Under the pieces are notes generated by a model, which was not told the origin of the DNA, ran no database searches, and saw only the letters and a list, made by a program, of their open reading frames with translations. A stretch of 64,000 nt of DNA from Sideroxydans sp. (GTDB lineage Bacteria; Pseudomonadota; Gammaproteobacteria; Burkholderiales; Gallionellaceae): the NCBI GenBank assembly GCA_013791855.1, contig VMTA01000018.1:117659-181658 (forward strand). Reading direction: 5' to 3'. The translations under genes were made by a program, and so were the position numbers. Every line of letters begins with the position of its first letter. Positions within the stretch are counted from its first letter, which is position 1. This document shows, piece after piece, positions 6,925-50,406 of this stretch.

Positions 6925-7059
6925 TCAGTCCAGCGAGAAGATGCACAGGGTGCAGAAGAAGGTGAGCGTGGCGTTGAAGCCTTTGGACATCAGCAGGCCG
7001 GGGATGCTGATGCGGCCATCTGCATGGTGGATGGATGCCTGGCGAGTGCTTCGCTTCAT
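6925..7059 (-). CDS. 44-aa microprotein MKRSTRQASIHHADGRISIPGLLMSKGFNATLTFFCTLCIFSLD
   Basis: AAGGA RBS, ATGA overlap with the upstream stop, ends 7 nt before the acyltransferase ATG. Confidence 0.55.
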   Translation of the reverse strand: MKRSTRQASIHHADGRISIPGLLMSKGFNATLTFFCTLCIFSLD

Positions 7060-8945
7060 ATCGTTTCCTTTGCGTAGGATGGATCGTAGTCGCGCTGTTC
7101 TACAAAGAGGCTGTTGCCCGGAATCTTCTTCGCCATCTTCTTGGCATCGGTCATGGCGGCGGAGACTTCGTGGTGTGACGAGAATTGGCCGGCCTCTATC
7201 CTGATCGCGCCGATGGACAGGCTGCTGAGGGGGTGGAACTTCACCGTGCCGTCGCGCCCTTCGCTGGTGTAACCGCCGGCGGCGATATGTTCTTCGCGGA
7301 ACATCAGCGAGGCGGCCTGCTCGAACGAGCGCAACGCTTGTTCGCAGCGTGATTGCCAGTCGCGGCTTTGCATCAGCAGGATGAAATCGTCTCCGCCGAT
7401 GTGGCCGAGGAAGTCGAGCTTGGGGTCGCATGTCCAGCTCAGCACGCGGCCGGTGAGCTGGATCATCTCGTCGCCCTTGCGGTAGCCGTAGGTGTCGTTG
7501 AATGGTTTGAAGTGATCAAGGTCGCAATAGCAGGCGACGAACGGGGTGTTCGCCTGCAGCAGGCGGCCGATGTGTTCGTTTATCGGCACGTTGCCGGGCA
7601 GCAGGGTGAGCGGGTTGGCATAGCGAGCGGCTTCCAACTGCATCTGCGTGAGCTCGCGCAACAGCGCCTGGCCCGAGGCGACGCCGATGTAGCGGCCGCG
7701 CTCGGTGATGATGAAGCCCTCGGCGAAATGGCGGTCTTCCGATTCGGCCAGGAAGTGGCTGAGCTCCTGCACCGGCATGTTCTTCTCCACCAGCAGCGGC
7801 GGATTCTGGATCAGTTCCATGCAAGATTTGCGACCGTGCAATTCGCGCTGGTAGGGTTTGGCGAAACGGTCGATGAAGCTGTAGCGGCTGATGAGCCCGA
7901 CCGGCGTGCCGTTGTTGACCACCGGGATGGCGCGCAGCGCAGGATCGGCGTTGAAGCGGTCGAATATGTTTTCGATCAGCGTGTTCGGGTGCACCGGCTC
8001 GATGTAGGTCAGCAGCTTTTGAGCCGTGGTCTGCGCGTTGGGCGGGCAGGCTGGGCACGAGGCATCCGGGAAGATGGAGATGCTCGAAGCGTTGAGGATG
8101 CGGCCGGTCTCGGTGGAGGCGAACAGCGGCGGCGTGGGGCTGGGGCGGGCGATGAAGTATCCCTGGCCGAGCGCGATGCCGAGTTCCTTCACCACTTTCA
8201 ATTCGGCCTCGGTCTCCACACCTTCGGCGATTACGTGTGTACCGCAGCTCTCGGCGATGCTCTGGATGGATTTGAGGAACTGCAATTTGATCGGGTCGCG
8301 GTCCACGCCCTGCACGAAATGCATGTCGATCTTGATGTATTCGGGGCGCAGTTCGGACCACAGGCGCAGGCTGGAGAACCCTTCGCCCAGATCGTCGATG
8401 GCGATCTTGAAGCCCATACCCCGGTAATGCAGCAGCGCGCTGCGCATGGCTTCGAAGTCGAAGGTGGGCTGGTTCTCGGTGATCTCGATCACCACGCGCG
8501 ACGGGTCGATATCCAGTTGCTCCAGAAAGGCCAGCGTCTGGCCGTTGCGGAAGCTGGGCTGGGTCAGCGTCTGCGGACTGACGTTGAGGAACAACTGGCC
8601 GGGCAGGTCTAGTCGGGCGAAAGCTTCGAGTACGGTGTGACGCGCGAGCATCTCGACTTCCAGCGCCAGGCCTTCGCGTTCGGCGGTCGCGAACAGATTG
8701 ACCGGCGAGTGTAATGGGCTGTTGGCGGGACCGCGGATCAAGCCTTCATAGCCGAGGAATTCGCCGCGCTTGAGGTCGATGATGGGCTGGAACAATGCGC
8801 TCAGGCTGCGTTCGGCAAGTATCTCTTCCAGCGGTGTCATGACTTGTTCCTTGTGTTCTTCGGCCTGCAGCAGGTTGGCCATGAATTGCGCGCGCGGCGC
8901 GCGCGCATAAGCGTGTTGCTGGGCAGGCGGCAGGACGGTGAACAT
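7056..8945 (-). CDS. EAL-CBS-CBS-GGDEF c-di-GMP turnover protein
   Basis: FQPI...YEGLIRGP, LFLNVSP, IEITE, DDLGEGFSSL, IKID, AEGVET; CBS pair; DLDHFKPFNDTYG...GDE...GHIGGDDF. Confidence 0.9.
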   Translation of the reverse strand: MFTVLPPAQQHAYARAPRAQFMANLLQAEEHKEQVMTPLEEILAERSLSALFQPIIDLKRGEFLGYEGLIRGPANSPLHSPVNLFATAEREGLALEVEMLARHTVLEAFARLDLPGQLFLNVSPQTLTQPSFRNGQTLAFLEQLDIDPSRVVIEITENQPTFDFEAMRSALLHYRGMGFKIAIDDLGEGFSSLRLWSELRPEYIKIDMHFVQGVDRDPIKLQFLKSIQSIAESCGTHVIAEGVETEAELKVVKELGIALGQGYFIARPSPTPPLFASTETGRILNASSISIFPDASCPACPPNAQTTAQKLLTYIEPVHPNTLIENIFDRFNADPALRAIPVVNNGTPVGLISRYSFIDRFAKPYQRELHGRKSCMELIQNPPLLVEKNMPVQELSHFLAESEDRHFAEGFIITERGRYIGVASGQALLRELTQMQLEAARYANPLTLLPGNVPINEHIGRLLQANTPFVACYCDLDHFKPFNDTYGYRKGDEMIQLTGRVLSWTCDPKLDFLGHIGGDDFILLMQSRDWQSRCEQALRSFEQAASLMFREEHIAAGGYTSEGRDGTVKFHPLSSLSIGAIRIEAGQFSSHHEVSAAMTDAKKMAKKIPGNSLFVEQRDYDPSYAKETI

Positions 8946-9082: not shown

Positions 9083-11125
9083 ATGATCGTTCCGCAGTTG
9101 CTGCAAGACCTGTCCAAGCGTTTGAACAGCCGCGGTTTTTCCGTGCTGCTGTCGGCGCTATCCGTGTTGTTCGTGCTGACCCTGTATTACTCGCAGAACC
9201 CCTTTCTGGAGGCGTTCGAGGCACGCACCTACGATCTGCGCTTCCGTGAGATGCGCGGTGCCATCCCGCTGGAACCTTCCATCGCCATCATCGCCATCGA
9301 TGACAAGAGCATCGCCGAACTAGGACGCTACCCCTGGACGCGCAGCCAGTACGCGCGTTTGCTGGAGCGGCTGAAAGCGGCGCAGGCGAAGGCGGTGATG
9401 TTCGATGCCTTCTTCCCCGAGCGCGAGGATATGGTGAACGACCAGGCGTTCTCGGCGGCGATGCAGAAGTCGGGCAACGTCACACTGGCGCAACTGTTCG
9501 AGTACGGCCCGGACGGGCAGGTGAAAGGTGTCACGCGCTCGCTGCCGGAGTTCGAGCGGGCGGCGGTCTCATCAGGCCAGATCAATCTGTTCCCGGACGA
9601 GGACGGCGTGAACCGGCGCGTGCCGCTGTTGATCGAGGCGGACGGTAAATTGCATCCTTCGCTGGGCATGACGGCGGCGATGATCGCGCTGGGGGAAAAG
9701 GAATATTCGGCCGAAGCTTTCGATGTGGTGGTGGGCGAGCGCCATATCCCGGTAGACGAACAATATGCGATGTGGATCAACTACACCGGCCCGCCGGGCG
9801 GTTATCCGCGCTACTCCTTCACCGACGTGGTGCACGGGCGGGTGCCGGCCGAGGCGCTGAAGGGCAAGGTGCTGTTCATCGGTGCCACTGCGCTGGGGGT
9901 GTATGACATGCGCGTCACGCCTTTCCACGGCAATACGCCGGGGGTGGAGATCCACGCCACCGTGGCCGACAACATCATCAGCGACCGCTTCATCCGCCAG
10001 GGCGGGCTGGAGGCGCTGATGGACATGATGTTCATCGTGCTGCTGGGCACGCTGGCCTATTTCCTCACCACACGCCTGCGCCTGTACGGTGCTATCCCGG
10101 CCACGGTGCTGATGCTGTCCGCCTATATCTGGTTCGCCTATGACATGTTCGCGGCCGGGCACTGGATCAATATCATCTATCCGACCTTGTCGGCGATCCT
10201 GGCGCTGCTGACGGGCGGCAGCTTCCGCTATCTGGTGCTGGAGCGCAGTGCGCGCGAGATGCGTTCCATGTTCTCCAGCTATCTGTCACCCAAGCTGGTG
10301 GCGCGACTGGAGAAGGACCCCGACGCAGCCAAGATCGGCGGCGACACCAAGGATGTGACGGTGCTGTTCACCGACATCAAAGGCTTCACCTCCTTCAGCG
10401 AATCGCATCCGCCGCAAGTGGTGGTGGCGCGACTGAACGAATATCTGGGGGAGATGGTGAAGATCATCGAGCGGCACGATGGCACCATAGACAAGTTCAT
10501 CGGCGATGCGGTGATGGCTTACTGGGGTGCGCCGCTGGCGCAGCCCGACCATGCGCGGCTGGCGGTGGAATGTGTGGCGGCCATGGCGACGCGCATGGGG
10601 CAGTTGCGCAGCAAATGGGAGGCGGAAGGTGTGGTGCCGTTCTCGATACGCGGCGGCTTGCATTCCGGCGAGGTGGTGGCCGGCAATGTCGGTTTTGCGG
10701 GCAAGAAGATGGAGTACACCGTGATCGGTGATACGGTGAATCTGGCCTCGCGTCTGGAAGGCACTGCGAAATACTACGGCATCACCTATCTGGTGGGCGA
10801 ACAGACCCGTCAGCTGGCGCCGGATGTCTGTCCGTATCGGGAAATGGACAAGATTCGGGTGGTCGGCAAGCAATTACCCGTTACAATTTATGAGCCTCAG
10901 GTCGGCCCGGATGCTTTGAGCAGCGGCCAAATGGCACGCTTCCATGCGGGGCTGGCGCACTACAGGCAGCGTGATTGGGCTGCGGCGCAGTCCGAATTCG
11001 CGGCCGTACTGGAAGAAAGACCGGAAGACAGGCCAAGCCAGTTATACGTCGAACGTTGCACCTACTTTGCAGCCAATCCCCCGGCAGAAGACTGGGACGG
11101 CGTTTTCAACCGGGCAGAAAAATAA
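9083..11125 (+). CDS. CHASE2-domain class III adenylate cyclase
   Basis: IIAIDDKSIAELGRYPW.R CHASE2, TPGVEIHA, 3 TM helices, VTVLFTDIKGFT, IDKFIGDAVMA, EYTVIGDTVNLASRLEG; start ATG 9083 with GAGG RBS. Confidence 0.92.
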   Translation: MIVPQLLQDLSKRLNSRGFSVLLSALSVLFVLTLYYSQNPFLEAFEARTYDLRFREMRGAIPLEPSIAIIAIDDKSIAELGRYPWTRSQYARLLERLKAAQAKAVMFDAFFPEREDMVNDQAFSAAMQKSGNVTLAQLFEYGPDGQVKGVTRSLPEFERAAVSSGQINLFPDEDGVNRRVPLLIEADGKLHPSLGMTAAMIALGEKEYSAEAFDVVVGERHIPVDEQYAMWINYTGPPGGYPRYSFTDVVHGRVPAEALKGKVLFIGATALGVYDMRVTPFHGNTPGVEIHATVADNIISDRFIRQGGLEALMDMMFIVLLGTLAYFLTTRLRLYGAIPATVLMLSAYIWFAYDMFAAGHWINIIYPTLSAILALLTGGSFRYLVLERSAREMRSMFSSYLSPKLVARLEKDPDAAKIGGDTKDVTVLFTDIKGFTSFSESHPPQVVVARLNEYLGEMVKIIERHDGTIDKFIGDAVMAYWGAPLAQPDHARLAVECVAAMATRMGQLRSKWEAEGVVPFSIRGGLHSGEVVAGNVGFAGKKMEYTVIGDTVNLASRLEGTAKYYGITYLVGEQTRQLAPDVCPYREMDKIRVVGKQLPVTIYEPQVGPDALSSGQMARFHAGLAHYRQRDWAAAQSEFAAVLEERPEDRPSQLYVERCTYFAANPPAEDWDGVFNRAEK

Positions 11126-11177
11126 CGCGACCGTCAGTGTCGCGGATCACATCAACAGAATTTGGATAGGTGGATAC

Positions 11178-14100
11178 ATGCGTAACTTGCTGATTGCATC
11201 CCTGATAGGACTCATTTCCCTTAGCGCCCATGCGGGGCTGAACGGCAACGGACTTGCCAACGGCTTCATCAAGGCCGATTTCAAGCGCGAGATCGCTGCT
11301 GACAAGCTGGAAAAGTTGCTGGCAACCGGCGGCGGCCTGCTGTTCGTTGCGCGTAAAGGCGGTGAGGTCGTGGCGATGGATGCGGGCGGGAAAGTCGCCT
11401 TTACGCTAGCGGCCAAGTCCGGCGAAGTGGAGCTGCTGAAGCGCCCGGAAGGTGCCGCAGTCACCAAGGACACCTTGTATGTGGTGGATAGCGATACCGA
11501 CCAGGTAGTGATGTATACCTTGCCCGGCGGCAAGTACAAGGGGCGTTTTGGCGCTAAGGCGGGCGGCTTCTTCGGCGGTGACGATCAGGCGCTGGACGGC
11601 CCACGTGGTATCGCGGTGCACGAAGGCGTGGTCTATGTGGCGGACACCGGCAATAAACGCATCCAGATGTTCGGTGTGAACGGCGTGTTCATCCATACGC
11701 TGGACCTGCATGCGAAGGGTAAAGACGAGAGCGGCAGGGAATTGCCGTGGCCGTTGAAGAAGGCCGCGGATATCGCGCTGGATGAGGTTGGCCGCATCTA
11801 TGTGATGGATAGCGATGAGAGTCAGATCAAGGTCTACGACCCCAGCGGTCTGTATCTGAGCTCTTTCCAGGATGTCGGTTCGCCGGTCGCGCTGGCAGTG
11901 GCTGAAGACGGTGTCTACGTCGCGGATGGAAGTAAACAGGTGGTGTCCAAGTTCGACTTCGACGGCAAGCCGGCTTTTTCGTTCGGCTCCAAGGGCGAGG
12001 GGAAATCCCAGACCAAGCAACTCTCCGGCCTTGCGGTAGAAAAAGGTCAGCAGGTCTACATCGGCGATGCCGGCAAATCGTTGCTCAATCATTTCCAGAC
12101 CATCGCGGGTACGCGCATGGAGCCGGTGCCTAAGGCGGCCGGACGTTCTTCCGTCAAATGGCAGGGCAGCATCCCGGTCGAAGCGGTGCAGTTGGCCGGT
12201 GACGGCAAGGGGACGGTGTATGCCATCACCAAGCCGGGCAAGGATGGCAGTGCATTGCTCAAGCTCAAGGACGGCAAAGTGGCGGCTGAGATCAGGCCCG
12301 CCGATATGGAGTTGACCGCGGTCACTGTGGATGCGAGCGGCGGTCTCTGGGTGCTGGATAAAAAGAAGAAGCGCTGTGTGAAACTGGATGAGGCGGGCAA
12401 GGAACTGGCGACTTTCGGTAGCGGCGGCAGCGGCGCAGGACAGTTCAGCAATCCTGCTTCCGTGGCGGTCGCCAGCAGCGGTCTGGTGTTTGTGGCGGAT
12501 CGCGGCCATCGCTCGGTGCAGGTGTTCCGCGGCGACGGCGTGTATGTGGACAAGCTGGGCGGCAATATCAGCAATCCGTTGGCGATCGGTATAGACCCGC
12601 AGGACCGCTTGTTCGTGCTGGACGGCAGTCGCAGCAGCGTGCTGGTGTTCAAGCCCAGCGGCGAGTTGTCGCATGAATTCGCCAGACCCAAGGAAGGCAG
12701 TCTGTTCGCCAAGCCGCTGGATATGGCGGTCACCGCCGACGAAGTGCTGGTGCTGGACGGCAATCAGGTAAAGGCGTTCGATCACCAAGGCAAACTGTTG
12801 CGGGTGTTCGGTACCAAAGCGACCGGTACGGCCAATCTGGGCGATCCGGTGGCGCTGGCCAGCAGCGGCGGTAGCACGCTGTTCGTGGCGGATGGCGAAG
12901 GCAAGCGTGTCGAATCCCTGTCGGTGATGTACAAACCGCAGCAACCGGCCAATTTCACCGCACACGGACATGTGCATGCGGTGGACCTGAGCTGGGACAA
13001 GCCGGCGGCGTTCTACGTCAAGGCCTTCCACATCTATCGCTCCAAGAGCGAGAACGCCGGCTATGTGCAAGTCGGCACCAGCGAGACAAATGCCTATACC
13101 GATGCAGGGCTGGATGCGGATGTGCGCTACTTCTATCGCGTGGTGGCGGTCTCCGATTTCGGTTATGAGGGAGCGAGCAGCTCCGCTGCGAGCGCAACGA
13201 CAGAGAAATTCACACCACCCGCTTTGAGCGCGGTCACGGCCGAGATGACACCCTGGCAGGCGAACCTGAAATGGGAAGCTGTCGATCCGCAATACTTCGC
13301 GGCCTACCGCATCTATCAGCAGGAAGGCGATGCCATGCTGCAGGTGGGCGAGGTCACCATGCCGGAGTTCACCAAGGACGCCCTGCAGCCGGAAACCAAA
13401 TACACCTTCTATGTCAGCGTGCTGAGCACCGACCAGACCGAATCGGAAAAGCTGCCGGTGGAAGCGACGACGCTGGTGTTCAGCCGTCCGCCGCTGGATA
13501 TCGAAGTGGTCAAGCTGGAGAACGTGTTCTCGAACTCCTACAAGCTGTACGAGCGTGACGGTATCGGCACCATCCGCCTGACCAACAACACGGACAAGAA
13601 GATGGAGAAGATCCGGGTCAGCTTCCTGTTGAAGAACTTCATGGATTTCTCGACCGAGAACAAGATCCTCAAGTTGATGCCGGGATCGAGCGAGGAATTG
13701 CCGCTGAAGGCGGTGTTCAACAACAGCATCCTCACCATGACCGAAGACAGCTCGGTGCAGGCACTGATCGAGGCCAGCTACTTCGATAACGGCAAGAAGG
13801 TGACTTACAGCCATAACGCCACGGTCAACGTGTACGACAAACACCGCCTGACCTGGGACGAGCGCGGGCGCTTCGCCGCCTTCGTCACGCCGAAAGACCC
13901 GCCGGTGCTGAATCTGGCGCGCGGTATCGTGGGCGAGTACCGCGAGACCAAGGATGAGGCGCAACTGGCGGCGGCACTGTTCGACGCGCTGGGTCTGTTC
14001 GGTCTGACCTATATCCAGGATCCGAGTAATCCCTATCAGCTCACCTCGGGCAAGGAGCATACCGTCGACTACATCCAGTTCCCGCGCGAGACGCTGGAGC

Positions 14101-14927
14101 GCAAATCGGGCGATTGCGACGACCTGGTAGCGGTCTACAGCGCCGGGTTGGAGAGCATGGGCATCAATACGCGCGTGCTGGAAGTGCCGGGGCACATGCT
14201 GATGATGTTCGATACACGCATCCCGGCCGAAGGCGATGGCTATACGATGAACAATCTGTATGTGATCCACGAGGGCACGCTGTGGGTGCCTGTGGAGACC
14301 ACGCTGGTCGGTAATTCCTTCATCAGGGCCTGGGAGAAGGGCAGCGAGACCTACTACAAATACAAGGATGACGGCTTGACGGTGCTGGATGTGCATGCGT
14401 CATGGGACACCTTCAAGCCGGCCAGTCTGCCGGATTCGGACTGGAAGGCGAGTGGTTTGAATCGCGCCGCCATCGAGAAGAAGTTCCCGGGCGACATACT
14501 GTCGGTGTTGAAGATCAGCTCGCAGACCAAGACACGGCGTTATCTGGACATCATCAAGGACAAGCCGGGCGATGTGGATGCGCACTTGCAGGTCGGCATC
14601 ATCCTGGCCAAGATCGGTGATCGCAAGGAGGCGATGAAGTACTTTGAAAAGGTGCTGAGTCTGGATGCGAAGAACGCCTCCGCGCACAACAACCTCGGCA
14701 ATCTTTACATGATCGACGACAAGTATCAGGATGCGGTCAAAGCTTATGCCGCGGCTGCCAAGCTGAGCCCCAATGATGCGCATATCTTGGTCAATCTTGC
14801 CCGCGCCTATAAGCGGTTGGGCAACACCAAGAGTGCCAAGGCCACCTTCATCAAGGCCAAGAAGCTGGATAAGAACGTGCAGGTACAATACCGTGCGCTG
14901 GCGCTGGAACTATTGAACGCATTGTGA
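11178..14927 (+). CDS. Large exported NHL-repeat / FN3 / Ig-like / transglutaminase-like Cys domain / TPR protein
   Basis: Signal peptide MRNLLIASLIGLISLSAHA; repeated P.GIAV...VYVAD..N.RIQ.F; two FN3 repeats; GDCDD...PGH...WVPVET; three C-terminal TPRs. Confidence 0.85.
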   Translation: MRNLLIASLIGLISLSAHAGLNGNGLANGFIKADFKREIAADKLEKLLATGGGLLFVARKGGEVVAMDAGGKVAFTLAAKSGEVELLKRPEGAAVTKDTLYVVDSDTDQVVMYTLPGGKYKGRFGAKAGGFFGGDDQALDGPRGIAVHEGVVYVADTGNKRIQMFGVNGVFIHTLDLHAKGKDESGRELPWPLKKAADIALDEVGRIYVMDSDESQIKVYDPSGLYLSSFQDVGSPVALAVAEDGVYVADGSKQVVSKFDFDGKPAFSFGSKGEGKSQTKQLSGLAVEKGQQVYIGDAGKSLLNHFQTIAGTRMEPVPKAAGRSSVKWQGSIPVEAVQLAGDGKGTVYAITKPGKDGSALLKLKDGKVAAEIRPADMELTAVTVDASGGLWVLDKKKKRCVKLDEAGKELATFGSGGSGAGQFSNPASVAVASSGLVFVADRGHRSVQVFRGDGVYVDKLGGNISNPLAIGIDPQDRLFVLDGSRSSVLVFKPSGELSHEFARPKEGSLFAKPLDMAVTADEVLVLDGNQVKAFDHQGKLLRVFGTKATGTANLGDPVALASSGGSTLFVADGEGKRVESLSVMYKPQQPANFTAHGHVHAVDLSWDKPAAFYVKAFHIYRSKSENAGYVQVGTSETNAYTDAGLDADVRYFYRVVAVSDFGYEGASSSAASATTEKFTPPALSAVTAEMTPWQANLKWEAVDPQYFAAYRIYQQEGDAMLQVGEVTMPEFTKDALQPETKYTFYVSVLSTDQTESEKLPVEATTLVFSRPPLDIEVVKLENVFSNSYKLYERDGIGTIRLTNNTDKKMEKIRVSFLLKNFMDFSTENKILKLMPGSSEELPLKAVFNNSILTMTEDSSVQALIEASYFDNGKKVTYSHNATVNVYDKHRLTWDERGRFAAFVTPKDPPVLNLARGIVGEYRETKDEAQLAAALFDALGLFGLTYIQDPSNPYQLTSGKEHTVDYIQFPRETLERKSGDCDDLVAVYSAGLESMGINTRVLEVPGHMLMMFDTRIPAEGDGYTMNNLYVIHEGTLWVPVETTLVGNSFIRAWEKGSETYYKYKDDGLTVLDVHASWDTFKPASLPDSDWKASGLNRAAIEKKFPGDILSVLKISSQTKTRRYLDIIKDKPGDVDAHLQVGIILAKIGDRKEAMKYFEKVLSLDAKNASAHNNLGNLYMIDDKYQDAVKAYAAAAKLSPNDAHILVNLARAYKRLGNTKSAKATFIKAKKLDKNVQVQYRALALELLNAL

Positions 14928-14964
14928 GTCCGATGCCCGCAAGCATAATCAAGGAGATATGGCC

Positions 14965-15360
14965 ATGAAGAGATTGATTTCGTTGTTCGTGTTGCTGGGT
15001 ATCGTATTGGCAACGCCGATACAAGTGTCTGCCGCAGATCAGGAACTGTCACTGTGGGAGCGCCTGCGCAAGAAGATCGAGTTGCTGACGCCGAAGAAGA
15101 AATTGACCACCACGACGGCTGCCGGTGGTGTGCGCGGCTCGCTGGCGGACGCGGATGACGTCTACTGGAAGGGCGAGGCTGAGCAGGCGGCCATCGATGA
15201 AGAAGAGCTGACCGCATTCACCAAGGCTGTCGAGCTGGTCGATACCGGCAAGACGGATGATGCGAAGGCTGCGTTCGCCGGTTTCGTCAAACAATATCCG
15301 GATAGTTCATTGCGCCCCGACGCGGAAGCGGCACTGGCGCAGTTGACGCCGGCCCAGTAA
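14965..15360 (+). CDS. Small exported protein with a TPR-like C-terminal helix pair
   Basis: AAGGAG RBS, signal peptide (..QVSA), TTTTAAGGVRG motif, AKAAFAGFVKQYPDSSLRPDA. Confidence 0.75.
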   Translation: MKRLISLFVLLGIVLATPIQVSAADQELSLWERLRKKIELLTPKKKLTTTTAAGGVRGSLADADDVYWKGEAEQAAIDEEELTAFTKAVELVDTGKTDDAKAAFAGFVKQYPDSSLRPDAEAALAQLTPAQ

Positions 15361-15443: not shown

Positions 15444-16697
15444 ATGCAGTTATTCAGCTTCGGCCTTAATCACCAGACCGCCCCGCTAGACGTGCGCGAG
15501 CAACTCTCGTTCAACGTCGAGACGATGGAGGACGCTTTGCGCGATCTGGTTGGCAACGGCGCTGCCAAGGAAGCCACCATCCTGTCCACCTGTAACCGTA
15601 CCGAGATCTATTGCAGCACCAGTTCGCCTGCGCAAACGGTCAACTGGCTGGCGGACTATCACAAGCTGCCGGCCAACGATGTCGAACCCTACATCTATCG
15701 TCTTCCGCAGGAGCAGGCGGTGAAGCACGCTTTCCGTGTCGCCAGCGGTCTGGACTCCATGGTTTTGGGCGAGCCGCAGATCCTCGGTCAGATGAAGCAG
15801 GCGGTGCGTCAGGCCGAGCAGGCGGGCACGATGGGTTTCCTGCTGCACAAGTTATTTCAGCGCACCTTCTCGGTCGCCAAGGATGTACGCACCCAGACCG
15901 AGATCGGCGCCAATCTGGTGTCGATGGCCGCTGCCGCGGTCAAACTGGCGGAGCGTATCTATCCCAGCATCTCGGAACAGAGTGTGCTGTTCATCGGCGC
16001 GGGCGAGATGATCGAGCTGAACGCCGTGCACTTTGCCGCGCGCAAGCCCAAGAAGATAACGGTCGCCAACCGCACGCTGGATCGCGCCCAGACGCTGGCC
16101 CGCCGGATAGACGGCCATGCCGTTACCCTGAACGAATTGTCCGAACAACTGGCGCACCACGACATCATCGTCACCTGTACCGCCAGCCAGTTGCCAATCC
16201 TGGGCAAGGGGCTGGTCGAGCGCGCACTCAAACAGCGCAAGCACCGCCCTTTGTTCATCGTCGATCTGGCCGTGCCGCGCGATGTGGAGCCGGAAGTGGC
16301 CGAACTGGACGATGTGTTCCTGTACACCGTGGACGACTTGGCTGAAGTGGTGCGCGACGGGCAGGATGCGCGTCAGGGTGCGGTGAAAGAGGCCGAAGTC
16401 ATCATCGATTCCGGCGTCAACGAATTCATCCACTGGATGGAATCGCGCGAAGTCGTGCCCACCATCCGCGCCTTGCGCGACCATACCGAACGCCAGCGCC
16501 GTCACGAGATGGACAAGGCGCTGAAGCAACTGGCCAAGGGCGATGCACCCGAGAAGGTGCTGGAAGCCCTGAGTGCTTCGCTCACCAATAAATTCCTGCA
16601 CGCCCCGACCCAGAGCCTGAATCAGGCACAGGATAGCGAGCGACAGACACTGCTCGACGCCGTCCACCGCATCTACCACCTGCACACCCCGGAATGA
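15444..16697 (+). CDS. hemA: Glutamyl-tRNA reductase
   Basis: [44 protein letters not shown]. Confidence 0.97.
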
Positions 16698-17776
16698 AAC
16701 CCAGTATCGCGGACAAACTCGCGCGTCTCGCCGAGCGTTTGGATGAGGTCACGCGCCTGCTAAGCAGCGAAGAAGCCACGCGTGATATGGACGCTTTCCG
16801 CAAACTCAATCGCGAGCGCGTGGAGATCGAACCGGTGGTCGAGCTGTTTCAGGCATACCAGTCGGCCCAAGCCGACATCGCTGCAGCGCAGGAGATGGCC
16901 GACGATCCGGCTATGCGCGAATTCGCCGATGAAGAGATCAAGGCCGGACAAGAGAAGCTGGCGCAGCTCGAGATCGAATTGCAGAAACAGTTGCTGCCGA
17001 AAGATCCAAACGACGAGCGCAACGTGTTCCTCGAAGTGCGTGCCGGTACCGGCGGCGATGAGGCGGCGCTGTTCGCGGGCGATCTGTTCCGCATGTATCT
17101 GCGTTTTGCAGAGCGCCGCCGCTGGCAGGTGGAGGTCATCTCGGAAAGTCCGGGCGAGGTCGGCGGCTACAAGGAAGTCATCGCGCGCATCATCGGCCAG
17201 GGCGCGTATTCCGTTCTGAAATTCGAATCGGGTGCTCATCGTGTGCAGCGTGTGCCTGCCACCGAGACTCAGGGTCGCATCCACACTTCCGCCTGCACGG
17301 TCGCCATCCTGCCGGAGGCGGACGAGGTGGGCGAAGTGGCACTGAATCCCGCCGATCTGCGCATCGATACCTTCCGCGCCTCGGGCGCGGGCGGCCAGCA
17401 CATCAACAAGACCGATTCCGCTGTGCGCATCACCCACCTGCCGACCGGCACCGTGGTCGAATGCCAGGACGGGCGCTCGCAACACCAGAACAAGGCACAG
17501 GCCATGCGCGTGCTGGCCGCGCGCATCAAGGACAAGGAAGAGCAGGCGGCGCACAGCAAGATCGCCGCCGAACGCAAATCGCTGGTGGGCAGCGGTGACC
17601 GTTCCGAGCGCATCCGCACCTACAACTTCCCGCAGGGGCGCGTCACCGACCATCGCATCAACCTCACCTTGTACAAGATGGACCAGATCATGGACGGCGA
17701 TATCACCGAACTCACCGATGCGCTGATGGCCGAGCATCAGGCCGAGCAGCTGGCCGCGCTGGGACAGGAAGGCTGA
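16694..17776 (+). CDS. prfA: Peptide chain release factor 1
   Basis: PATET (PxT), [28 protein letters not shown]. Confidence 0.97.
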
Positions 17777-17781
17777 TCGGC

Positions 17782-18639
17782 ATGCCTGGCATCCGCGAGC
17801 GGTTGGCGCAGGATGTCGCTGCGATACGCCAGACATTGGGGCTGGAGCAGGATGAGGCACGCAGCGAGGTGCAAGTTTTGCTGCAGACCGCGCTGGGTGT
17901 GAATCGCGCCTACCTGCTGGCGCATCCCGAGCGAGTGCTCACCGAGCAAGAACTTTCCCGCTACCAAGCATCGTTGCAGCGCCGTTTGCAGGGCGAGCCG
18001 CTGGCATACATCCTGGGCGAGCGGGAGTTCTTCGGTCTGAATTTCAAGGTCACACCCGCCACCTTGATCCCTCGACCCGATACCGAACTGCTGGTGGAAT
18101 TGGCATTGGCGCGGATCTCGTCTGCGGGCTGCCGTGTGCTCGATCTGGGCACGGGCAGCGGAGCCATCGCGCTGGCTATCGCGCACGCTCGTCCCGATGC
18201 CGAGGTGATGGCGGTGGATGCTTCAGAACCGGCGTTGTCGGTGGCGCTGGAGAACGCCAGACGTTTGCAGATTCGCAATACCAGCTTCGTTTCCAGTGAT
18301 TGGTTCTCCGCACTGGCGGGGCAGCGTTTTGACCTCATTGTCTCCAATCCACCCTATATCGCCGAAAACGACCGGCATCTGGCGCAGGGTGATCTGCGTT
18401 TCGAGCCGGCCACTGCTTTGGCGTCCGGTTCGGATGGTCTGCATGACATCCGTCGCATCATCAGCGAAGCAGGTGCTCACCTTGCGGCAGGCGGCTGGCT
18501 GATGTTGGAGCACGGTTATGACCAGGCCGAGCAGGTGCGCGCACTGCTGCTAAAGGCTGGTTTCAAAAATGTCCGGTCAGACAAGGACTTGGCAGGGATA
18601 GAGCGCGTCAGCGGCGGGCAGTACGCCGGGGGTATATAG
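17782..18639 (+). CDS. prmC: Release factor glutamine methyltransferase
   Basis: LIPRPDTE, LDLGTGSGAIA, NPPY, LEHG. Confidence 0.96.
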   Translation: MPGIRERLAQDVAAIRQTLGLEQDEARSEVQVLLQTALGVNRAYLLAHPERVLTEQELSRYQASLQRRLQGEPLAYILGEREFFGLNFKVTPATLIPRPDTELLVELALARISSAGCRVLDLGTGSGAIALAIAHARPDAEVMAVDASEPALSVALENARRLQIRNTSFVSSDWFSALAGQRFDLIVSNPPYIAENDRHLAQGDLRFEPATALASGSDGLHDIRRIISEAGAHLAAGGWLMLEHGYDQAEQVRALLLKAGFKNVRSDKDLAGIERVSGGQYAGGI

Positions 18640-42130: not shown

Positions 42131-44101
42131 ATGAACGATTCGTTACAACTCCTGCTCATTTTGCTCGCCGTTGCCGTGCTGGTGGTGGTGCTGTTCCGTT
42201 CGCTGCATCTGCCCGCCATGCTGGGCTATCTCATCGTCGGCGTGCTGATCGGCCCGCATGCGTTGGGCTGGATACCCGATGCACCCGAGACCAGGCATCT
42301 GGCCGAGTTCGGCGTGGTGTTCCTGATGTTCAGTATCGGTCTCGAATTCAGTCTGGCCCGCTTGCGGTCGATGCAGCGTCTGGTGTTCGGCTTGGGCACG
42401 GCGCAAGTGGTCGCCACCATGTTGCTGGTCATGCTGACTTCCACCTTCTTCGATCTTGGCTGGGCGGCCGGGCTGGCGCTGGGCGGCATCATGGCCATGT
42501 CCTCGACGGCTATCGTCAGCAAGATGCTGGTTGAGCGCGCCGAACTCAACACGCCGCACGGCCAGAAGATCATGGGCGTGCTGCTGTTCCAGGATCTGGC
42601 CGTGGTGCCGCTCATCATCCTGATCCCGGCCTTGGCGTCGCAGGACGGCAATCTCTCTTCCACACTGGCCTATGCGGCATTGAAGGCGATCCTGGTGCTG
42701 ACCGTGCTGCTCACCTTTGGGCAGCGCTTGCTGCGACCATGGTTCCATCTGGTCGCGCGCCAGAAATCCTCCGAACTGTTCATGCTGAACGTGTTGCTGT
42801 TCACGCTCGGCTTGGCCTGGATCACCGAGTTGAGTGGTCTGTCCATGGCGCTGGGCGCCTTCGTGGCGGGCATGCTGATATCCGAGACCGAATACCGTTA
42901 TCAGGTGGAAGAAGACATCAAACCGTTCAGAGATGTGTTGCTCGGTCTGTTCTTCGTCACCATCGGCATGATGCTGGATATGCAAGCGCTGATAGAAGGT
43001 TGGGGTTGGATATTGCTGTTGCTGCTCATTCTGGTGCCGTTCAAGGCGCTGGTGGTTGCGCTGCTGGTGCGTTCGTTCTCGGGGGATTGGGGGCCGGCGT
43101 TGCGCACCGGTCTCGGCTTGGCGCAAGCGGGCGAATTCGGCTTCGTGTTGCTGACGCTCACCGGCGGGGCCAATCTTCTGCCGCATGACGTGATGCAGAA
43201 CGTGTTGGCCGCCATGCTGGTCTCCATGATGATCGCCCCCTTCCTGATCCAGCATGCCGAAGCCATCGTGCGCCGCATCTCGCCGGAAGAATGGATGAAC
43301 AGCGCCATGCAGATGCATCAGATCGCTGTCCAGAGCATGAGCACCAACCAGCATGTCATTATTTGCGGGTACGGACGCAGCGGGCAGGCGTTGGCGGCGT
43401 TCCTGAAGAACGAAAAGGTGAGCTTCATCGCGCTCGACCTGGATTCGCGCCGTGTGCACGAGGCCAGTTCATCGGGAGAACGCGTCGTGTACGGTGACGC
43501 CGCCAAGCATGAAGTGTTGCAGGCGGCGGGGCTGATGCGTGCCAAGGCTTTGGTCATCACTTACGACGACAAACATTCTGCGCTGAGGATATTGCGCCAT
43601 ATCCAGCAAGGCCGTCCTGATCTGCCGGTCATCGTGCGCACGTCCGATGACAGTAATGTCGAGATCCTCAAGAAGGCCGGTGCCACGGAAGTGGTGGCGG
43701 AGGTGCTGGAAGGCAGCGTCATGCTCGCCTCGCAGGCGTTGTTGATGGCCGGTATCCCGCTCAGTCGCGTAGTGCGACGTGTACAAGAGGCGCGTGCCAA
43801 GCGCTACAGTATGTTCAGCGGTTATCTGCGCGGCAATCGCGATGAGATCGGTGAAGAAACAGACAGCATCCAGCCGCGCTTCCAGAGTGTCATGCTGCAC
43901 GAGCAAGACAAGGCGGTCGGCATGCGCTTGGGCGACCTGAAGCTTTCTGAATTCAACATCGAAGTCAACGGCGTGCGCCGTCACAACCTGCTGGGCGGTG
44001 AGCCTTCAGATGATATGTTGCTGCGGGCGGGTGATGTGTTGATGCTGCTGGGGCAGCCGATGATGCTGGAGGCTGCGGAGAAAAGATTGCGGCAGGGGTG
44101 A
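42131..44101 (+). CDS. CPA2-family K+/H+ antiporter (KefB/KefC-like) with TrkA_N and TrkA_C domains
   Basis: LAEFGVVFLMFSIGLEFS, LSSTA-like motif, LFQDLAVVP, GYGRSG, YGDA. Confidence 0.9.
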   Translation: MNDSLQLLLILLAVAVLVVVLFRSLHLPAMLGYLIVGVLIGPHALGWIPDAPETRHLAEFGVVFLMFSIGLEFSLARLRSMQRLVFGLGTAQVVATMLLVMLTSTFFDLGWAAGLALGGIMAMSSTAIVSKMLVERAELNTPHGQKIMGVLLFQDLAVVPLIILIPALASQDGNLSSTLAYAALKAILVLTVLLTFGQRLLRPWFHLVARQKSSELFMLNVLLFTLGLAWITELSGLSMALGAFVAGMLISETEYRYQVEEDIKPFRDVLLGLFFVTIGMMLDMQALIEGWGWILLLLLILVPFKALVVALLVRSFSGDWGPALRTGLGLAQAGEFGFVLLTLTGGANLLPHDVMQNVLAAMLVSMMIAPFLIQHAEAIVRRISPEEWMNSAMQMHQIAVQSMSTNQHVIICGYGRSGQALAAFLKNEKVSFIALDLDSRRVHEASSSGERVVYGDAAKHEVLQAAGLMRAKALVITYDDKHSALRILRHIQQGRPDLPVIVRTSDDSNVEILKKAGATEVVAEVLEGSVMLASQALLMAGIPLSRVVRRVQEARAKRYSMFSGYLRGNRDEIGEETDSIQPRFQSVMLHEQDKAVGMRLGDLKLSEFNIEVNGVRRHNLLGGEPSDDMLLRAGDVLMLLGQPMMLEAAEKRLRQG

Positions 44102-44129
44102 TGCGTGCAAGGTTTTCTGAGCCGAGCCT

Positions 44130-44762
44130 TCAGACGCTCAGGCAAGCCAGATAGAAATCGCGTTCGATGATGTTGCCTGACGCGATCGGCTCGCCACCGC
44201 TGTTCGCATGAGAGACCAACATCGAACCTTTGGCTGTATAGCCATCGTCCAGCATCATGTCCAATTGCTTCACCAGGCGTCCCGAGATGTTGTCGGAGCA
44301 GATGATGTATCCGCCGCCCATGCCGCTGATGGGCGCGTTGCTGATGTCGGTGACGCCCAGACTTCCTCCCGACGTGTTGAGCGGCACATAGCCGCTCGCC
44401 TCGGCGTTCGCCACCCCCTGCAAAAATCCCGCCAAGCGAACATGTTGCCAGAGGAAGAACGATTCGCTCAGATAGGTATTCAGATCGCCCTCGATACGCA
44501 GATTGCCGTTGCCGTTCTGTATGGATATAGAGGTCGGCGACAGGTTCGCGGATGCTGCGGAGTCATCACCCGGCAAAGCGCGGAAGCGATCCTGATAGCC
44601 AAACAGTGCCACTTGAATGTCGCGGAAGTCGTTGGCGAGGCTCTTTGCGCGTGAGTTATCCACCAGCTCCCTGCCTTTGATCGTCAATGTGATGAGCAGT
44701 CCGATGATTGCCATGACGATGGCGATCTCTATCAAAGTGAAGCCGGATTGTTTGTGTCGCAT
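44130..44762 (-). CDS. Type IV prepilin/pseudopilin (paralog 2)
   Basis: QSG/FTLIE cleavage-methylation motif, GYQDRFRALPGDD, C-terminal Cys pair. Confidence 0.9.
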   Translation of the reverse strand: MRHKQSGFTLIEIAIVMAIIGLLITLTIKGRELVDNSRAKSLANDFRDIQVALFGYQDRFRALPGDDSAASANLSPTSISIQNGNGNLRIEGDLNTYLSESFFLWQHVRLAGFLQGVANAEASGYVPLNTSGGSLGVTDISNAPISGMGGGYIICSDNISGRLVKQLDMMLDDGYTAKGSMLVSHANSGGEPIASGNIIERDFYLACLSV

Positions 44763-44802
44763 GAATCGAATAGCCTGAGTGGTTAACGGTACGGTAGTTA
44801 TT

Positions 44803-44818
44803 AGCAGTAACCATGCCA
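44803..44818 (-). promoter_or_regulatory. sigma54 -24/-12 promoter of pilin paralog 2
   Basis: TGGCATGGTTACTGCT (GG-N10-GC). Confidence 0.55.
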
Positions 44819-44944
44819 GTCAGATGGTCATATACAGCTGCGCTGAACTATCGAATCAGCTGGTGTCCTGGGATTTTGGCGACGGAGTGTCGACAAGTGG
44901 TGACGAGAAACGGGCAGATGGAATTGGTTATTAATTACCACAAA

Positions 44945-44977
44945 ATAAAACGCCCCAACACAGTTGGGGCGTTTTAT
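44945..44977. terminator. Intrinsic terminator between the pilin paralogs
   Basis: ATAAAACGCCCCAAC-ACA-GTTGGGGCGTTTTAT, 15-bp stem. Confidence 0.85.
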
Positions 44978-45033
44978 CGACTAGCGTTGACTAGATAAAG
45001 CTCAACAGAGACCGCAAATATTCGTTAGGAATA

Positions 45034-45750
45034 TTAGATTCCCATACAGACTGTATAGGTGTCTGCATCGCCCAGCGAGGCTACTGCAGTCATTGCCGTA
45101 CCGGTGGCAGTGGCTACGCCCGCCATCATGGAGCCGCTTGCTGTATTGCCATCGTCCATTTGCGTGTCGAGCTGCTTGGCAAACTTGCCTAAGATTCCCG
45201 CTGAGCAGATGACATAAGAACCTCTAATCGCAACACCACCACCCGTAATTGGCGTGTTGGTTGTGTTGCTAGTGCCGCCTTGAATGCCGATTTCTCCACC
45301 AACGGCATTTACGGGCATGTAACCTTCAACTCCGGGAGTCGTTGCTCCTGGAGCCAAGCCTGCCAAACGTACATGCTGCCAAAACAAAACAGACTCATCG
45401 GTCACGGTAGTAGAGTTCCAGAAGCCGTCTAGAACTCCATTGGCGACGCAGCCTGCGTTCCCGGCGCCCGGGACGCAGGCGGTGCCATTGAGTCCGGTAG
45501 TAGGGGTGCTAGCTTCGGTTGCGCCAGTCACATGGCTAGCTGCCAGACCGTCATCGCCCGGGATGGAGCGAAATTTATCCTGATAGCCATAGATAAAGAC
45601 GGGGATATTCTTGAAGTCCGTCGCCAGATTCTTAACCTTGGCACTATTGATCAGCTCCTGACCCTTCAGCACGCCGCCGAGCAGCAGGCCGATAATCACC
45701 AGAACGATGGCGATTTCAATTAGAGTAAAGCCGGATTGTTTTTGCTTCAT
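45034..45750 (-). CDS. Type IV prepilin/pseudopilin (paralog 1, probable major subunit)
   Basis: QSG/FTLIEIAIVLVIIGLLLGGVLKGQELI, GYQDKFRSIPGDD; GGAGG RBS; own terminator. Confidence 0.92.
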   Translation of the reverse strand: MKQKQSGFTLIEIAIVLVIIGLLLGGVLKGQELINSAKVKNLATDFKNIPVFIYGYQDKFRSIPGDDGLAASHVTGATEASTPTTGLNGTACVPGAGNAGCVANGVLDGFWNSTTVTDESVLFWQHVRLAGLAPGATTPGVEGYMPVNAVGGEIGIQGGTSNTTNTPITGGGVAIRGSYVICSAGILGKFAKQLDTQMDDGNTASGSMMAGVATATGTAMTAVASLGDADTYTVCMGI

Positions 45751-45848
45751 TGTGTTTCCTCCAGTGGGTGATAGTTGGGTTCACGTTGCGCTAGACTGCG
45801 CGTATTCGAAACCCTGATAGCAATAGCTATCGCCTGCATAACTGATAC

Positions 45849-45864
45849 AGCAAATAGCATGCCA
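45849..45864 (-). promoter_or_regulatory. sigma54 -24/-12 promoter of pilin paralog 1
   Basis: TGGCATGCTATTTGCT, near-consensus. Confidence 0.75.
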
Positions 45865-45999
45865 TCGTTCCGGCGTATGCGATTTAGTGTGCTTTATATA
45901 TAAAAAACAATTCAGTGGCAAATATATTTCATCAATTAGGTGAGCGATGAAGCAAGTTCCGAAGATCGGCCGTCGAGGAATCGACGCAATGGTGACGAG

Positions 46000-47682
46000 A
46001 TGACGACATTCAGCCCTGCGCACTGGGCGCGTTCAAGCCGCTGGCTATCGCTGCTTATGCTGGTGATGTTGCATGCGGCCTTGTGGTTAGGTATCGACAA
46101 CATCTGGGCGCGCCCGCTATTGCTGGCCCATCTGGGCGTGTTTCTCGTTTGGCAGCCGTTGTGGCGCAGCGAAACGCGCTTGAGTTGGGGGAATTCGCTG
46201 TTCATCCTCGGGGTGAGCTTGGCCGCGCTCACATGGTTGAATTGGTGGATATTGGCATTTTGGGTCGGCGGGCTGTTCGCTTTGGTGGGTGCGCGGGCTT
46301 TCTCTTTCTATGCGCGCTGGCAGCGCATCTATCATCTGTTGGTCATGGCGTATCTGCTGGCGGTGCTGCTTCTGTATATCACGCCGCATCTGTTCGATCT
46401 TCCTGCCTTCGATGAGGTGACGCGTAATCTGATGACTGTCGCGCTGCCCTTGATGTTGGCTGTGATGGCGCTCATTCCAGTCGAGCGCGAAAAGCCGAAT
46501 GCGGTGCAGGCTATCGACTTCTTCTACGTGCTGCTGCTGTTCACCTTGCTTACGGTGCTGGTGCTGGGCACGCTGGCTTTCATGACGCTGAACCAGGTCG
46601 GATATCTGGATGCGTTGTTGCGAACTTTGTTTGTGATTGCGGTCGCGTTATTCGTTCTGGGCGCTCTTTGGCATATGGACTTTGGACCATTCGGATTGCA
46701 GAGCAGCTTTTCCCGATACGTGCTTTCCATCGGCACACCGTTGGAAGTGTGGCTTAAACAATTGGCGGCGGATGCGCAGCGGGATAGCGGTCCGCGCGAG
46801 TTCCTTGAAAGTGCAACCGAACATATGATCGAGATGCCCTGGATGCTCGGGATGGCATGGGTATCGGCAGAAGGACATGGCACTTTGGGCAATGCCAGTC
46901 CGCACCGGGTCGAGCTGGCTGATGAAGATTTGAACATCACCCTGTTCACCAGGCAGGCTGTCGCGCCGACCGTGTTGCTGCATATGCGGCTGCTGGTACA
47001 AGTGCTGGGCTATTTCTATCAGGCCAAGCGGCGCGAACAGCGTCTACGCGAAATGACCCGGCAACAGGCTATCTACGAAACGGGTGCGCGCCTGACGCAT
47101 GATCTAAAGAATATGCTGCAATCGCTGTTCGCCCTTGCATCCATTGCGCAAAGCGAACCGGCAAGGGCGCAGCCCATCTTGCAGCAGCAGTTGCCAGTGC
47201 TGTCGCAGCGCATCGAGGCATTGCTGGGAAAACTCAAAGCTCCAACGCCGGAGTCCGAATCCCGAGAGATCGAGTTGATGACATGGTGGGAAGAGTTGTG
47301 TCAGCGCTATGCGCATCGCGATATCGAGTGGAAGCTCGAGCATGAGGGCGAACGACCTGCCTTAAGGATACCTGCGGAGATGTTCGACTGCGTGGCGGAC
47401 AACCTGATCGAAAATACGCTGAACAAACGTTTGCGTGAGCCTGCGCTGCATGTCCGGGTCAGTCTGGATGTCAGATCGCCGTCGTTGCGTGTGAGCGATG
47501 ACGGCAGTGCGATACCTTCAGGATATGCACAAAAGTTGTTGCGAACGGTGGTGCCATCAGAGGATGGCTTGGGGGTGGGCTTATATCAAGCATCAAGATG
47601 GGCGCGGCAGAACCATTACAAAATGCAGCTGAAGGAAAATGAACCGGGCAAAGTGACCTTCGAGCTATCGCCCGATGCTTAA
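46000..47682 (+). CDS. Multi-TM sensor histidine kinase (orphan)
   Basis: Many N-terminal TM helices, LTHDLKN H-box, NLIENT, DDG, GLGVGLY; start 46000 or GTG 45940. Confidence 0.85.
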   Translation: MTTFSPAHWARSSRWLSLLMLVMLHAALWLGIDNIWARPLLLAHLGVFLVWQPLWRSETRLSWGNSLFILGVSLAALTWLNWWILAFWVGGLFALVGARAFSFYARWQRIYHLLVMAYLLAVLLLYITPHLFDLPAFDEVTRNLMTVALPLMLAVMALIPVEREKPNAVQAIDFFYVLLLFTLLTVLVLGTLAFMTLNQVGYLDALLRTLFVIAVALFVLGALWHMDFGPFGLQSSFSRYVLSIGTPLEVWLKQLAADAQRDSGPREFLESATEHMIEMPWMLGMAWVSAEGHGTLGNASPHRVELADEDLNITLFTRQAVAPTVLLHMRLLVQVLGYFYQAKRREQRLREMTRQQAIYETGARLTHDLKNMLQSLFALASIAQSEPARAQPILQQQLPVLSQRIEALLGKLKAPTPESESREIELMTWWEELCQRYAHRDIEWKLEHEGERPALRIPAEMFDCVADNLIENTLNKRLREPALHVRVSLDVRSPSLRVSDDGSAIPSGYAQKLLRTVVPSEDGLGVGLYQASRWARQNHYKMQLKENEPGKVTFELSPDA

Positions 47683-47698
47683 GGGGTTGGTAAAGGAT

Positions 47699-47716
47699 TG
47701 TTGCAATATTGCAACA
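47699..47716. promoter_or_regulatory. Perfect 18-bp palindromic operator upstream of cyc2
   Basis: TGTTGCAATATTGCAACA. Confidence 0.7.
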
Positions 47717-47731
47717 CATGCCAACAAAGCT

Positions 47732-47761
47732 TTGACACCGTCTTCACGTTTTCTTTATTGT
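47732..47761 (+). promoter_or_regulatory. sigma70 promoter of cyc2
   Basis: TTGACA-N18-TATTGT. Confidence 0.65.
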
Positions 47762-47839
47762 GCGTCCCCATGGTTGCGAGGGTATGAAACCTTCCGGCCA
47801 TCTAAAGGGTAATTTCCAAATCAACGAGGAGAAACATCA

Positions 47840-49066: not shown

Positions 49067-49082
49067 GTTTGAGCTGACGTAA

Positions 49083-49159
49083 GGATTCCGGTTCGCCGGG
49101 ATCCAAACCAAGCACAAGCACCAATGAAACAGGGGAGACTTCGGTCTCCCTTGTTTTTT
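49083..49159 (+). terminator. Two UUCG hairpins after cyc2; the second is an intrinsic terminator
   Basis: GGATTCCGG-TTCG-CCGGGATCC and GGGAGAC-TTCG-GTCTCCC-TTGTTTTTT. Confidence 0.85.
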
Positions 49160-49225
49160 GCCTGTCATTCACGCAAAGCGAGTATCCAGTTATACTGGCC
49201 TCACAATAATTTCAAGGAGCGATTG

Positions 49226-49656: not shown

Positions 49657-49670
49657 AAATCTGTGCAGTT

Positions 49671-50396: not shown

Positions 50397-50406
50397 ATCT
50401 AATTAA

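Follow-up and report, generated by a model that had tools for sequence, protein, structure and literature searches.

A stretch of 64,000 nucleotides (nt) from Sideroxydans sp. (GenBank assembly GCA_013791855.1, contig VMTA01000018.1, positions 117,659 to 181,658 of the forward strand; the whole stretch is called the window here) carries three adjacent genes that we name g1, g2 and g3. They encode a membrane adenylate cyclase with a CHASE2 domain, a large exported multidomain protein and a small exported protein. This triad is a real mobile unit of exactly three genes rather than a case of local synteny, because its order is kept in four lineages while the flanking genes differ. Signalling from g2 and g3 through CHASE2 to cyclic AMP (cAMP) is plausible. 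We propose that the triad is an operon-like module that couples an older exported g2–g3 pair to cAMP synthesis via contact with CHASE2, and we regard the chances of this proposal as evenly balanced. Going beyond the initial annotation of this DNA, our comparisons indicate that the core of g2 defines a large uncharacterised exported family and that the g2–g3 pair also occurs without the cyclase.

Conservation of the triad across genomes

A scan for g2 relatives with one genome per species returned 191 relatives, and the best 80 of them were taken for the analysis of loci. A g1 ortholog lies directly upstream of g2 on the same strand in 72 of the 72 loci with upstream DNA, and a g3 ortholog follows g2 directly in 79 of the 79 loci that extend past it. 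The neighbourhood survey for co-occurrence elsewhere, as it had been suggested with the initial annotation, thus found the triad kept at every informative locus among these 80. The spacer between g1 and g2 has a median length of 68 nt (26–222 nt, 55 loci) and that between g2 and g3 of 45 nt (−4 to 316 nt, 67 loci). Carriers belong to the Gallionellaceae (Sideroxydans, Sideroxyarcus, Ferrigenium and Gallionella), the Comamonadaceae (Curvibacter sp. PAE-UM and Hylemonella) and the Thiohalomonadaceae, and include one metagenome-assembled genome (MAG) of the Desulfobacterales, whose proteins are 51% (g1), 40% (g2) and 39% (g3) identical to those of the window. Cultured carriers are S. lithotrophicus ES-1, Sideroxydans sp. 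CL21, Ferrigenium sp. UT4 and Curvibacter sp. PAE-UM.

The surroundings of the triad are far less constant. hemA and prfA follow it in part of the Gallionellaceae only, and an EAL-CBS-GGDEF gene lies upstream only in the closest relatives (loci L001–L005 and L056), which means that it does not belong to the unit. When neighbours were clustered in 14 diverse loci, no gene beyond the triad was common to all of them. A LemA-family gene was considered as a further member and ruled out, as it adjoins the triad in gammaproteobacterial loci only; it is found at 12207–12794 of L072, 12218–12805 of L074 and 5122–5697 of L071. In S. lithotrophicus ES-1 (CP001965.1, 244552–260307; locus L161, 2241–3189), phage-type genes (Com zinc ribbon, D12-class adenine methyltransferase, DUF4376) precede the triad and replace the EAL-CBS-GGDEF gene.

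Locus layout and transcription

All three genes lie on the forward strand of the window, which has a G+C content of about 60% and, judged by its nearest relatives, stems from a Sideroxydans-like member of the Gallionellaceae known from groundwater metagenomes; coordinates are window positions unless a locus is named. g1 extends from 9083 to 11125 (680 amino acids, aa; assigned from the open reading frame (ORF), Pfam and hydropathy), g2 from 11178 to 14927 (1249 aa; ORF, Pfam, alignments and AlphaFold) and g3 from 14965 to 15360 (131 aa; ORF, Pfam and alignments). These ORF coordinates agree with the co-orientation and the gaps of 52 and 37 nt given in the initial annotation. The g1–g2 spacer (11126–11177) contains a short hairpin without a T-run and the ribosome-binding site GGTGGA, and the g2–g3 spacer (14928–14964) contains AAGGAG, so that a Shine-Dalgarno-like sequence precedes both g2 and g3. 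Alternative longer ORFs begin at 9005 and 10944, but ortholog alignments start at the shorter starts, and in the complete genome of the cultured strain S. lithotrophicus ES-1 the genes had been called independently with 680, 1251 and 131 aa.

Our scan found no terminator-like sites with a T-run between g1, g2 and g3. The promoter and terminator scan was uninformative, with counts like those in shuffled sequences. Groundwater metatranscriptome contigs of 90–99% identity span the greater part of g1 and g2; one of them (aligned at 11039–11534) bridges the g1–g2 junction. Since metatranscriptome libraries can contain DNA, we take these contigs as weak support for co-transcription of g1 and g2.

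g1, a CHASE2 adenylate cyclase of class IIIb

g1 combines a CHASE2 domain (aa 30–322, E 2e-63, 214.6 bits against a Pfam cut-off of 26.3) with a Guanylate_cyc domain (aa 422–596, E 5e-26, 92 bits against a cut-off of 21.9). The latter corresponds to 10346–10870 on the forward strand and was assigned by Pfam, by alignment to Pseudomonas aeruginosa CyaB and by comparison of 67 orthologs. A first transmembrane segment is located at about aa 14–36 and three hydrophobic segments at about aa 311–381; an 80-aa tail follows the cyclase domain. The hydropathy threshold flagged two of these segments only, and the remaining ones were read from the sequence. By its topology, g1 would be an inner-membrane protein whose CHASE2 domain faces the periplasm and whose cyclase domain lies in the cytoplasm.

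In a sequence search of the PDB, the closest solved relatives of the catalytic domain were class IIIb adenylate cyclases, with P. aeruginosa CyaB (3r5g, E 6e-35) ahead of the cyanobacterial Cya1/CyaC (2w01 and 1wc0, down to E 7e-26). The metal-binding aspartates D431 and D475, the substrate pair K471 and T546 and the transition-state residues N553 and R557 line up residue by residue with CyaB 3r5g and are invariant across the 67 orthologs. A Lys/Thr pair, in which Thr replaces Asp, marks the ATP-type cyclases of subclass IIIb. The initial annotation had described g1 as a CHASE2 cyclase with catalytic Asp residues and an ATP-type Lys/Thr pair, and this description holds in Pfam, in the CyaB alignment and among the orthologs. 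g1 is best read as an active ATP-using class IIIb cyclase. It has all catalytic residues, including the Lys/Thr pair, in common with CyaB, Cya1 and CyaC; these enzymes, however, carry other N-terminal sensor modules, and a pairing with transglutaminase-like partners is not known for them.

g2, an exported protein with a transglutaminase-like core

g2 starts with a signal peptide (aa 1–19, …SAHA/G), which is followed by an NHL region (about aa 30–575), two FN3 domains (about 576–765), a beta-sandwich (about 773–886), a transglutaminase-like domain (about 895–1076) and three to four C-terminal TPR repeats (about 1126–1249). The NHL region of about 545 residues contains eight or more blade motifs, which would suffice for two propellers. 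The beta-sandwich and the transglutaminase-like domain together form the core (13473–14432 on the forward strand), which was defined from alignments, Pfam matches of orthologs, AlphaFold and Foldseek. It is the best conserved part of the protein, with a mean identity of 72–75% versus 54% for the NHL and FN3 regions; over their full length, g2 homologs in Gallionellaceae are 50–92% identical. A putative catalytic triad consists of C980 (14115–14117, in D979-C-D-D), H1006 (14193–14195, in P-G-H) and E1040 (14295–14297, in P-V-E-T-T). These residues and the D-C-D-D motif are invariant in 73 orthologs, and the Cys-His-Glu set is near-invariant in 47 distant family members.

Pfam Transglut_core was matched by 13 of 14 diverse g2 orthologs (best E 2e-6) and DUF553 by 12 of them. 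An AlphaFold model of aa 765–1131, built with 46 distant family members, reached a pLDDT of 93.3 and a pTM of 0.90; in it, an alpha/beta domain comes after an Ig-like beta-sandwich. It supersedes an earlier run on aa 765–1249 with close homologs only, in which the enzyme domain had a pLDDT below 50. For the enzyme part, Foldseek returned matches to yeast PNGase (3esw, E 4e-4, probability 0.99), transglutaminase 2 (3s3p, E 5e-4) and a putative protease (3kd4), with E values of about 4e-4 to 3e-3 overall and low TM-scores (about 0.2). A sequence search of the PDB with the C-terminal half of g2 returned TPR proteins only, and a PDB profile search with the enzyme domain gave nothing significant. 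On the basis of the ortholog Pfam matches, the model, the structural matches and the invariant Cys-His-Glu set, the core of about 360 residues is predicted to be a distant member of the transglutaminase-like superfamily with its papain-like fold. The transglutaminase-like/TPR make-up that had been read from the DNA was borne out.

The C-terminal end of g2 (…ALELLNAL, 14889–14924) is invariant or nearly so in the aligned orthologs, though not in the wider family, and could be a docking tail.

g3, a small exported protein

Like g2, g3 carries a signal peptide (aa 1–23, …VSA/AD), in line with the export that had been assigned to both proteins. The signal peptide is followed by a predicted helix, LWERLRKKIELL, and then by an invariant Pro and a Lys-rich turn (Pro-KK). 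Next comes the invariant motif TTA[A/V]GGVRG (aa 50–58, nt 15112–15138), followed by DVYWKGE, and the C-terminal part forms a single weak CpoB/YbgF-like TPR hairpin. Among 79 orthologs the motif reads TAAGG in 28 and TAVGG in about 50. The g3-like proteins of relatives without the cyclase have T-x-[V/I]-A-G at this position and retain the helix, the Pro-Lys turn, A-G-[V/I/L]-R-G, Y-W-K/R-G and the TPR hairpin.

The wider g2-core family

When g2 aa 765–1131 was compared with 1.84 billion representative proteins, 2402 clusters (defined at 50% identity) were found at E ≤ 1e-3 and 1206 at E ≤ 1e-30. The family signature is GDCDD...PGH...PVExT, of which the GDCDD part occurs in 132 of the 150 best representatives. 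Every sampled member ends in TPR; the N-terminal part varies and can be absent or consist of FN3, NHL, a beta-helix or long TPR arrays. In the loci examined, short forms of about 700 aa are followed by a gene for an exported protein, with overlapping stop and start codons. The downstream proteins combine Ig-like, PKD, FN3 or cadherin-like domains with a propeller (FG-GAP, DUF5122, RCC1) or Lcl_C domains (loci L088, L097, L098, L100, L104, L116, L117, L121, L137, L145 and L150). The propeller and FN3 module is thus an N-terminal fusion in g2 and a separate downstream gene in the short-form loci. By a fusion-type argument, the enzyme-TPR core may be expected to work together with propeller and FN3/Ig modules, and the pattern points to a common envelope function. 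Genes for enzymes of cyclic di-GMP (c-di-GMP) metabolism (PAS-GGDEF-EAL, GAF-GGDEF) were seen near short-form members in L084, L096, L100 and L111.

Other features of the window

Downstream of the triad lie hemA, prfA and prmC (15444–18639), as in most Gallionellaceae. In Escherichia coli, hemA-prfA-prmC are followed by ychA/sirB1, which encodes a cytoplasmic transglutaminase-like/TPR protein; we take the parallel to the triad to be probably a coincidence. The EAL-CBS-GGDEF gene is located divergently upstream of g1 (7056–8945, minus strand). A 996-aa ORF runs antisense to g2 (11406–14396, minus strand); G+C-rich coding DNA often has long antisense ORFs. No tRNA or Rfam elements were found in the window.

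Further away, positions 44000–50400 have a lower G+C content (0.52–0.55 compared with about 0.60). Two pilin-like genes with N-terminal methylation motifs are found there on the minus strand (44130–44762 and 45034–45750), together with a 580-aa ORF without a Pfam match (45940–47682), a weakly porin-like gene (47840–49066) and a calcineurin-like phosphoesterase gene (49671–50396, minus strand), whose product could be a cyclic-nucleotide phosphodiesterase.

Discussion

CHASE2 is a widespread periplasmic sensor domain, found in cyclases, kinases and c-di-GMP enzymes, for which hardly any inputs are known. In the mechanism that we propose for the triad, g2 and g3 would act in the periplasm or at the outer membrane, where the propellers and FN3 domains of g2 would bind a macromolecular target. 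The transglutaminase-like domain would act on a protein substrate, possibly on g3 at its invariant A-[A/V]-G-G-V-R-G. CHASE2 would sense the state of the g2–g3 pair through direct contact with either the TPR/core part of g2 or g3, and this contact would lift or impose autoinhibition of the cyclase by CHASE2, so that an envelope event alters the cAMP level. The receptor for cAMP would be encoded elsewhere. In a narrower version of the proposal, which seems improbable to us, CHASE2 would have as its physiological ‘ligand’ the catalytic or binding state of g2 as it works on g3 or an envelope polymer.

The mechanism is reasonable because there are three published precedents for its elements. In Sinorhizobium meliloti, deletion of CHASE2 from CyaD1 leads to constitutive cAMP production, which means that CHASE2 is autoinhibitory (PMC5498481). 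The S. meliloti CHASE2 cyclases CyaK and CyaD1/D2 depend on the envelope protein NsrA for the perception of a proteinaceous signal (PMC7529298). If our proposal holds, g1 would likewise be an inner-membrane CHASE2 cyclase relying on a separate envelope protein; NsrA, however, is described as an outer-membrane beta-barrel receptor, whereas g2 and g3 are exported proteins of soluble type, one with an enzyme-like domain, and no beta-barrel porin domain was found in either of them by Pfam. The third precedent is the co-encoding of CHASE2 sensors with exported proteins (PMC9239204, PMC5192318). In Campylobacterota, CHASE2 cyclase genes cluster with those for a cAMP phosphodiesterase, an outer-membrane protein with a FecR domain and a TPR protein; the function of the cluster is unknown, and it has apparently been transferred between phyla as a unit (PMC9239204). 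The triad resembles it in that a CHASE2 class III cyclase is accompanied by exported partners, one of them with TPR, but it includes neither a FecR protein nor a phosphodiesterase, in the window or in the diverse loci, and its large partner has the NHL-FN3-transglutaminase-like-TPR architecture. The BiofilmReg operon of Burkholderia encodes a response regulator, a periplasmic LysM-FecR protein and a CHASE2 histidine kinase (PMC5192318). There, too, the gene for a CHASE2 sensor accompanies that for an exported accessory protein in an arrangement conserved across families, but the output is a histidine kinase instead of a cyclase and the accessory protein is unrelated.

The LapD-LapG and DvhD-DvhG systems, in which a periplasmic transglutaminase-like cysteine protease is controlled by a transmembrane cyclic-nucleotide protein (PMC3032545, PMC13090378), offer a further comparison. 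Common features are the transglutaminase-fold enzyme, the acidic residues beside its Cys and the genetic coupling to a transmembrane second-messenger protein with a periplasmic domain. Lap signalling runs inside-out from a c-di-GMP receptor to the protease, whereas the membrane protein of the triad is a cAMP synthase, for which outside-in signalling would be expected. In addition, g2 is no BTLCP protein by Pfam or fold ranking, its putative triad is Cys-His-Glu and the di-alanine of g3 is not conserved. No description of a system of this composition turned up when the literature was searched for CHASE2 together with transglutaminase and for cyclases of Sideroxydans. The initial annotation had suggested an undescribed system. 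This stands for the g1-g2-g3 composition, which is absent from the searchable literature, but not for the broader idea of exported partners encoded together with a CHASE2 sensor, which has already been published.

Several findings weigh against the proposed coupling of g2 and g3 to the cyclase. The direction from g2 and g3 through CHASE2 to cAMP and any proteolytic step are purely what we infer, and so is the contact of CHASE2 with g2 or g3. No CRP-like cAMP receptor and no second cyclase is encoded in the window, and no metatranscriptome contig covers g3. The Transglut_core match of the g2 of the window itself scores 17.9–20.3 bits, under the Pfam cut-off of 23, and PDB sequence, PDB profile and Foldseek searches revealed no close solved relative of its enzyme domain. 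The strict adjacency is shown for the clade that is at least about 40% identical to g2. Among 80 metagenomic loci of short g2-core forms there was not one CHASE2 gene, and the single cyclase nearby was an unrelated HAMP-cyclase 4 kb away. The long NHL form was accompanied by a g3-like gene and no cyclase in three of three informative metagenomic loci, and two long Nitrospirota contigs carry a g2-like and g3-like pair without a cyclase and with a transporter gene of the major facilitator superfamily next to it. Such pairs from Nitrospirota/NC10, with a g2-like protein of about 1265 aa, were found in L122, L135, L156, L163 (7001–11386) and L164 (7001–11471), and the transporter gene follows in L122, L163 and L164. 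Because the pair occurs alone in Nitrospirota/NC10, the cyclase is a later addition: the g2–g3 pair is older and more widespread than the triad and was joined by the CHASE2 cyclase in one clade. For the same reason the pair has a cyclase-independent job, and information could flow in either direction.

This autonomous occurrence is also what gives the main rival explanation its weight. There, CHASE2 senses an unrelated cue, small or macromolecular, and g2 and g3 are a regulated enzyme pair for envelope remodelling or adhesion, co-transcribed with the cyclase, whose amount or, via cAMP, whose activity or partners track the signal. It would agree with the wider family, in which transglutaminase-TPR genes precede those of exported proteins that look like surface proteins or adhesins, with Ig-like/PKD/cadherin-like domains and a propeller or Lcl_C, and with the presence of c-di-GMP enzymes near some relatives and of EAL-CBS-GGDEF divergently upstream in the closest ones. 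Yet a single shared promoter would place g2 and g3 downstream of g1 rather than under a cAMP-controlled promoter of their own, periplasmic proteins are out of direct reach of a cytoplasmic second messenger, and such strict adjacency, maintained as the genes moved from class to class, is more typically seen where partners interact physically. We consider this explanation possible, if on the unlikely side. That adjacency merely reflects inherited synteny among related bacteria is very improbable: most loci do come from Gallionellaceae, where hemA-prfA also stays beside the triad, but in Comamonadaceae, Thiohalomonadaceae and the Desulfobacterales MAG the triad alone is kept, with short spacers and unrelated flanks.

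g2 might also be an active LapG-like cysteine protease that turns the cyclase on by an irreversible cut in g3 or CHASE2. The activation of CyaD1 by removal of CHASE2 (PMC5498481) would fit such a switch, as would the invariant C980, H1006 and E1040 and the resemblance of D-C-D-D to the D-C-E calcium site by the catalytic Cys of LapG and DvhG (PMC13090378). The sole PDB profile match of the enzyme domain, non-significant at E 0.39 over 41 residues, was to LapG in the LapD complex (4u65_E) and covers exactly this motif, and T-A-A-G in the g3 of the window, after a helix and a Pro, resembles the LapG site [T/A/P]AAG (PMC13090378). As a conserved cleavage site of this kind, TAAG was nevertheless rejected, since the di-alanine varies both across orthologs (T-A-V-G-G in about 50 of 79) and in the cyclase-less relatives (T-x-[V/I]-A-G). 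Moreover, there was no Pfam match to Peptidase_C93, the BTLCP/LapG family, LapG is absent among the 50 best Foldseek matches, the third triad residue is Glu instead of Asp, and transamidation or plain binding would be equally possible. Altogether, a proteolytic switch seems improbable. The chance that the triad serves anti-phage signalling, with g1 as a Pycsar-type cyclase and g2 akin to the anti-phage protein ProA, is close to negligible. PADLOC models of PycC match the cyclase domain of g1 (best E 5e-31), which is explained by the class III fold, and g1 has the ATP-type Lys/Thr pair and a periplasmic sensor. NCBIfam ProA matches g2 at aa 796–1082 (13563–14423; E 5e-10) with 37 bits, far under its cut-off of 1500 bits; both g2 and g3 have export signals, the genes around the locus are housekeeping genes, and no gene for a cyclic-nucleotide-binding effector is adjacent in the window or in the diverse loci. 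The ProA match spans positions 12–312 of 1903, so that the N-terminus of ProA seems to share the beta-sandwich and transglutaminase-like module. A literature search on ProA found nothing.

The triad, kept across classes and in cultured strains, provides a concrete partner set for one CHASE2 cyclase, and its constancy suggests an undescribed route from an envelope event to a cAMP signal. Should the state of g2 indeed be the ligand of CHASE2, a mechanistic input for CHASE2 sensors would be known for the first time. The family of exported beta-sandwich/transglutaminase-like/TPR proteins, with its roughly 2400 clusters and its otherwise usual pairing with surface Ig-like and propeller proteins, would likewise gain a first function, that of envelope surveillance.

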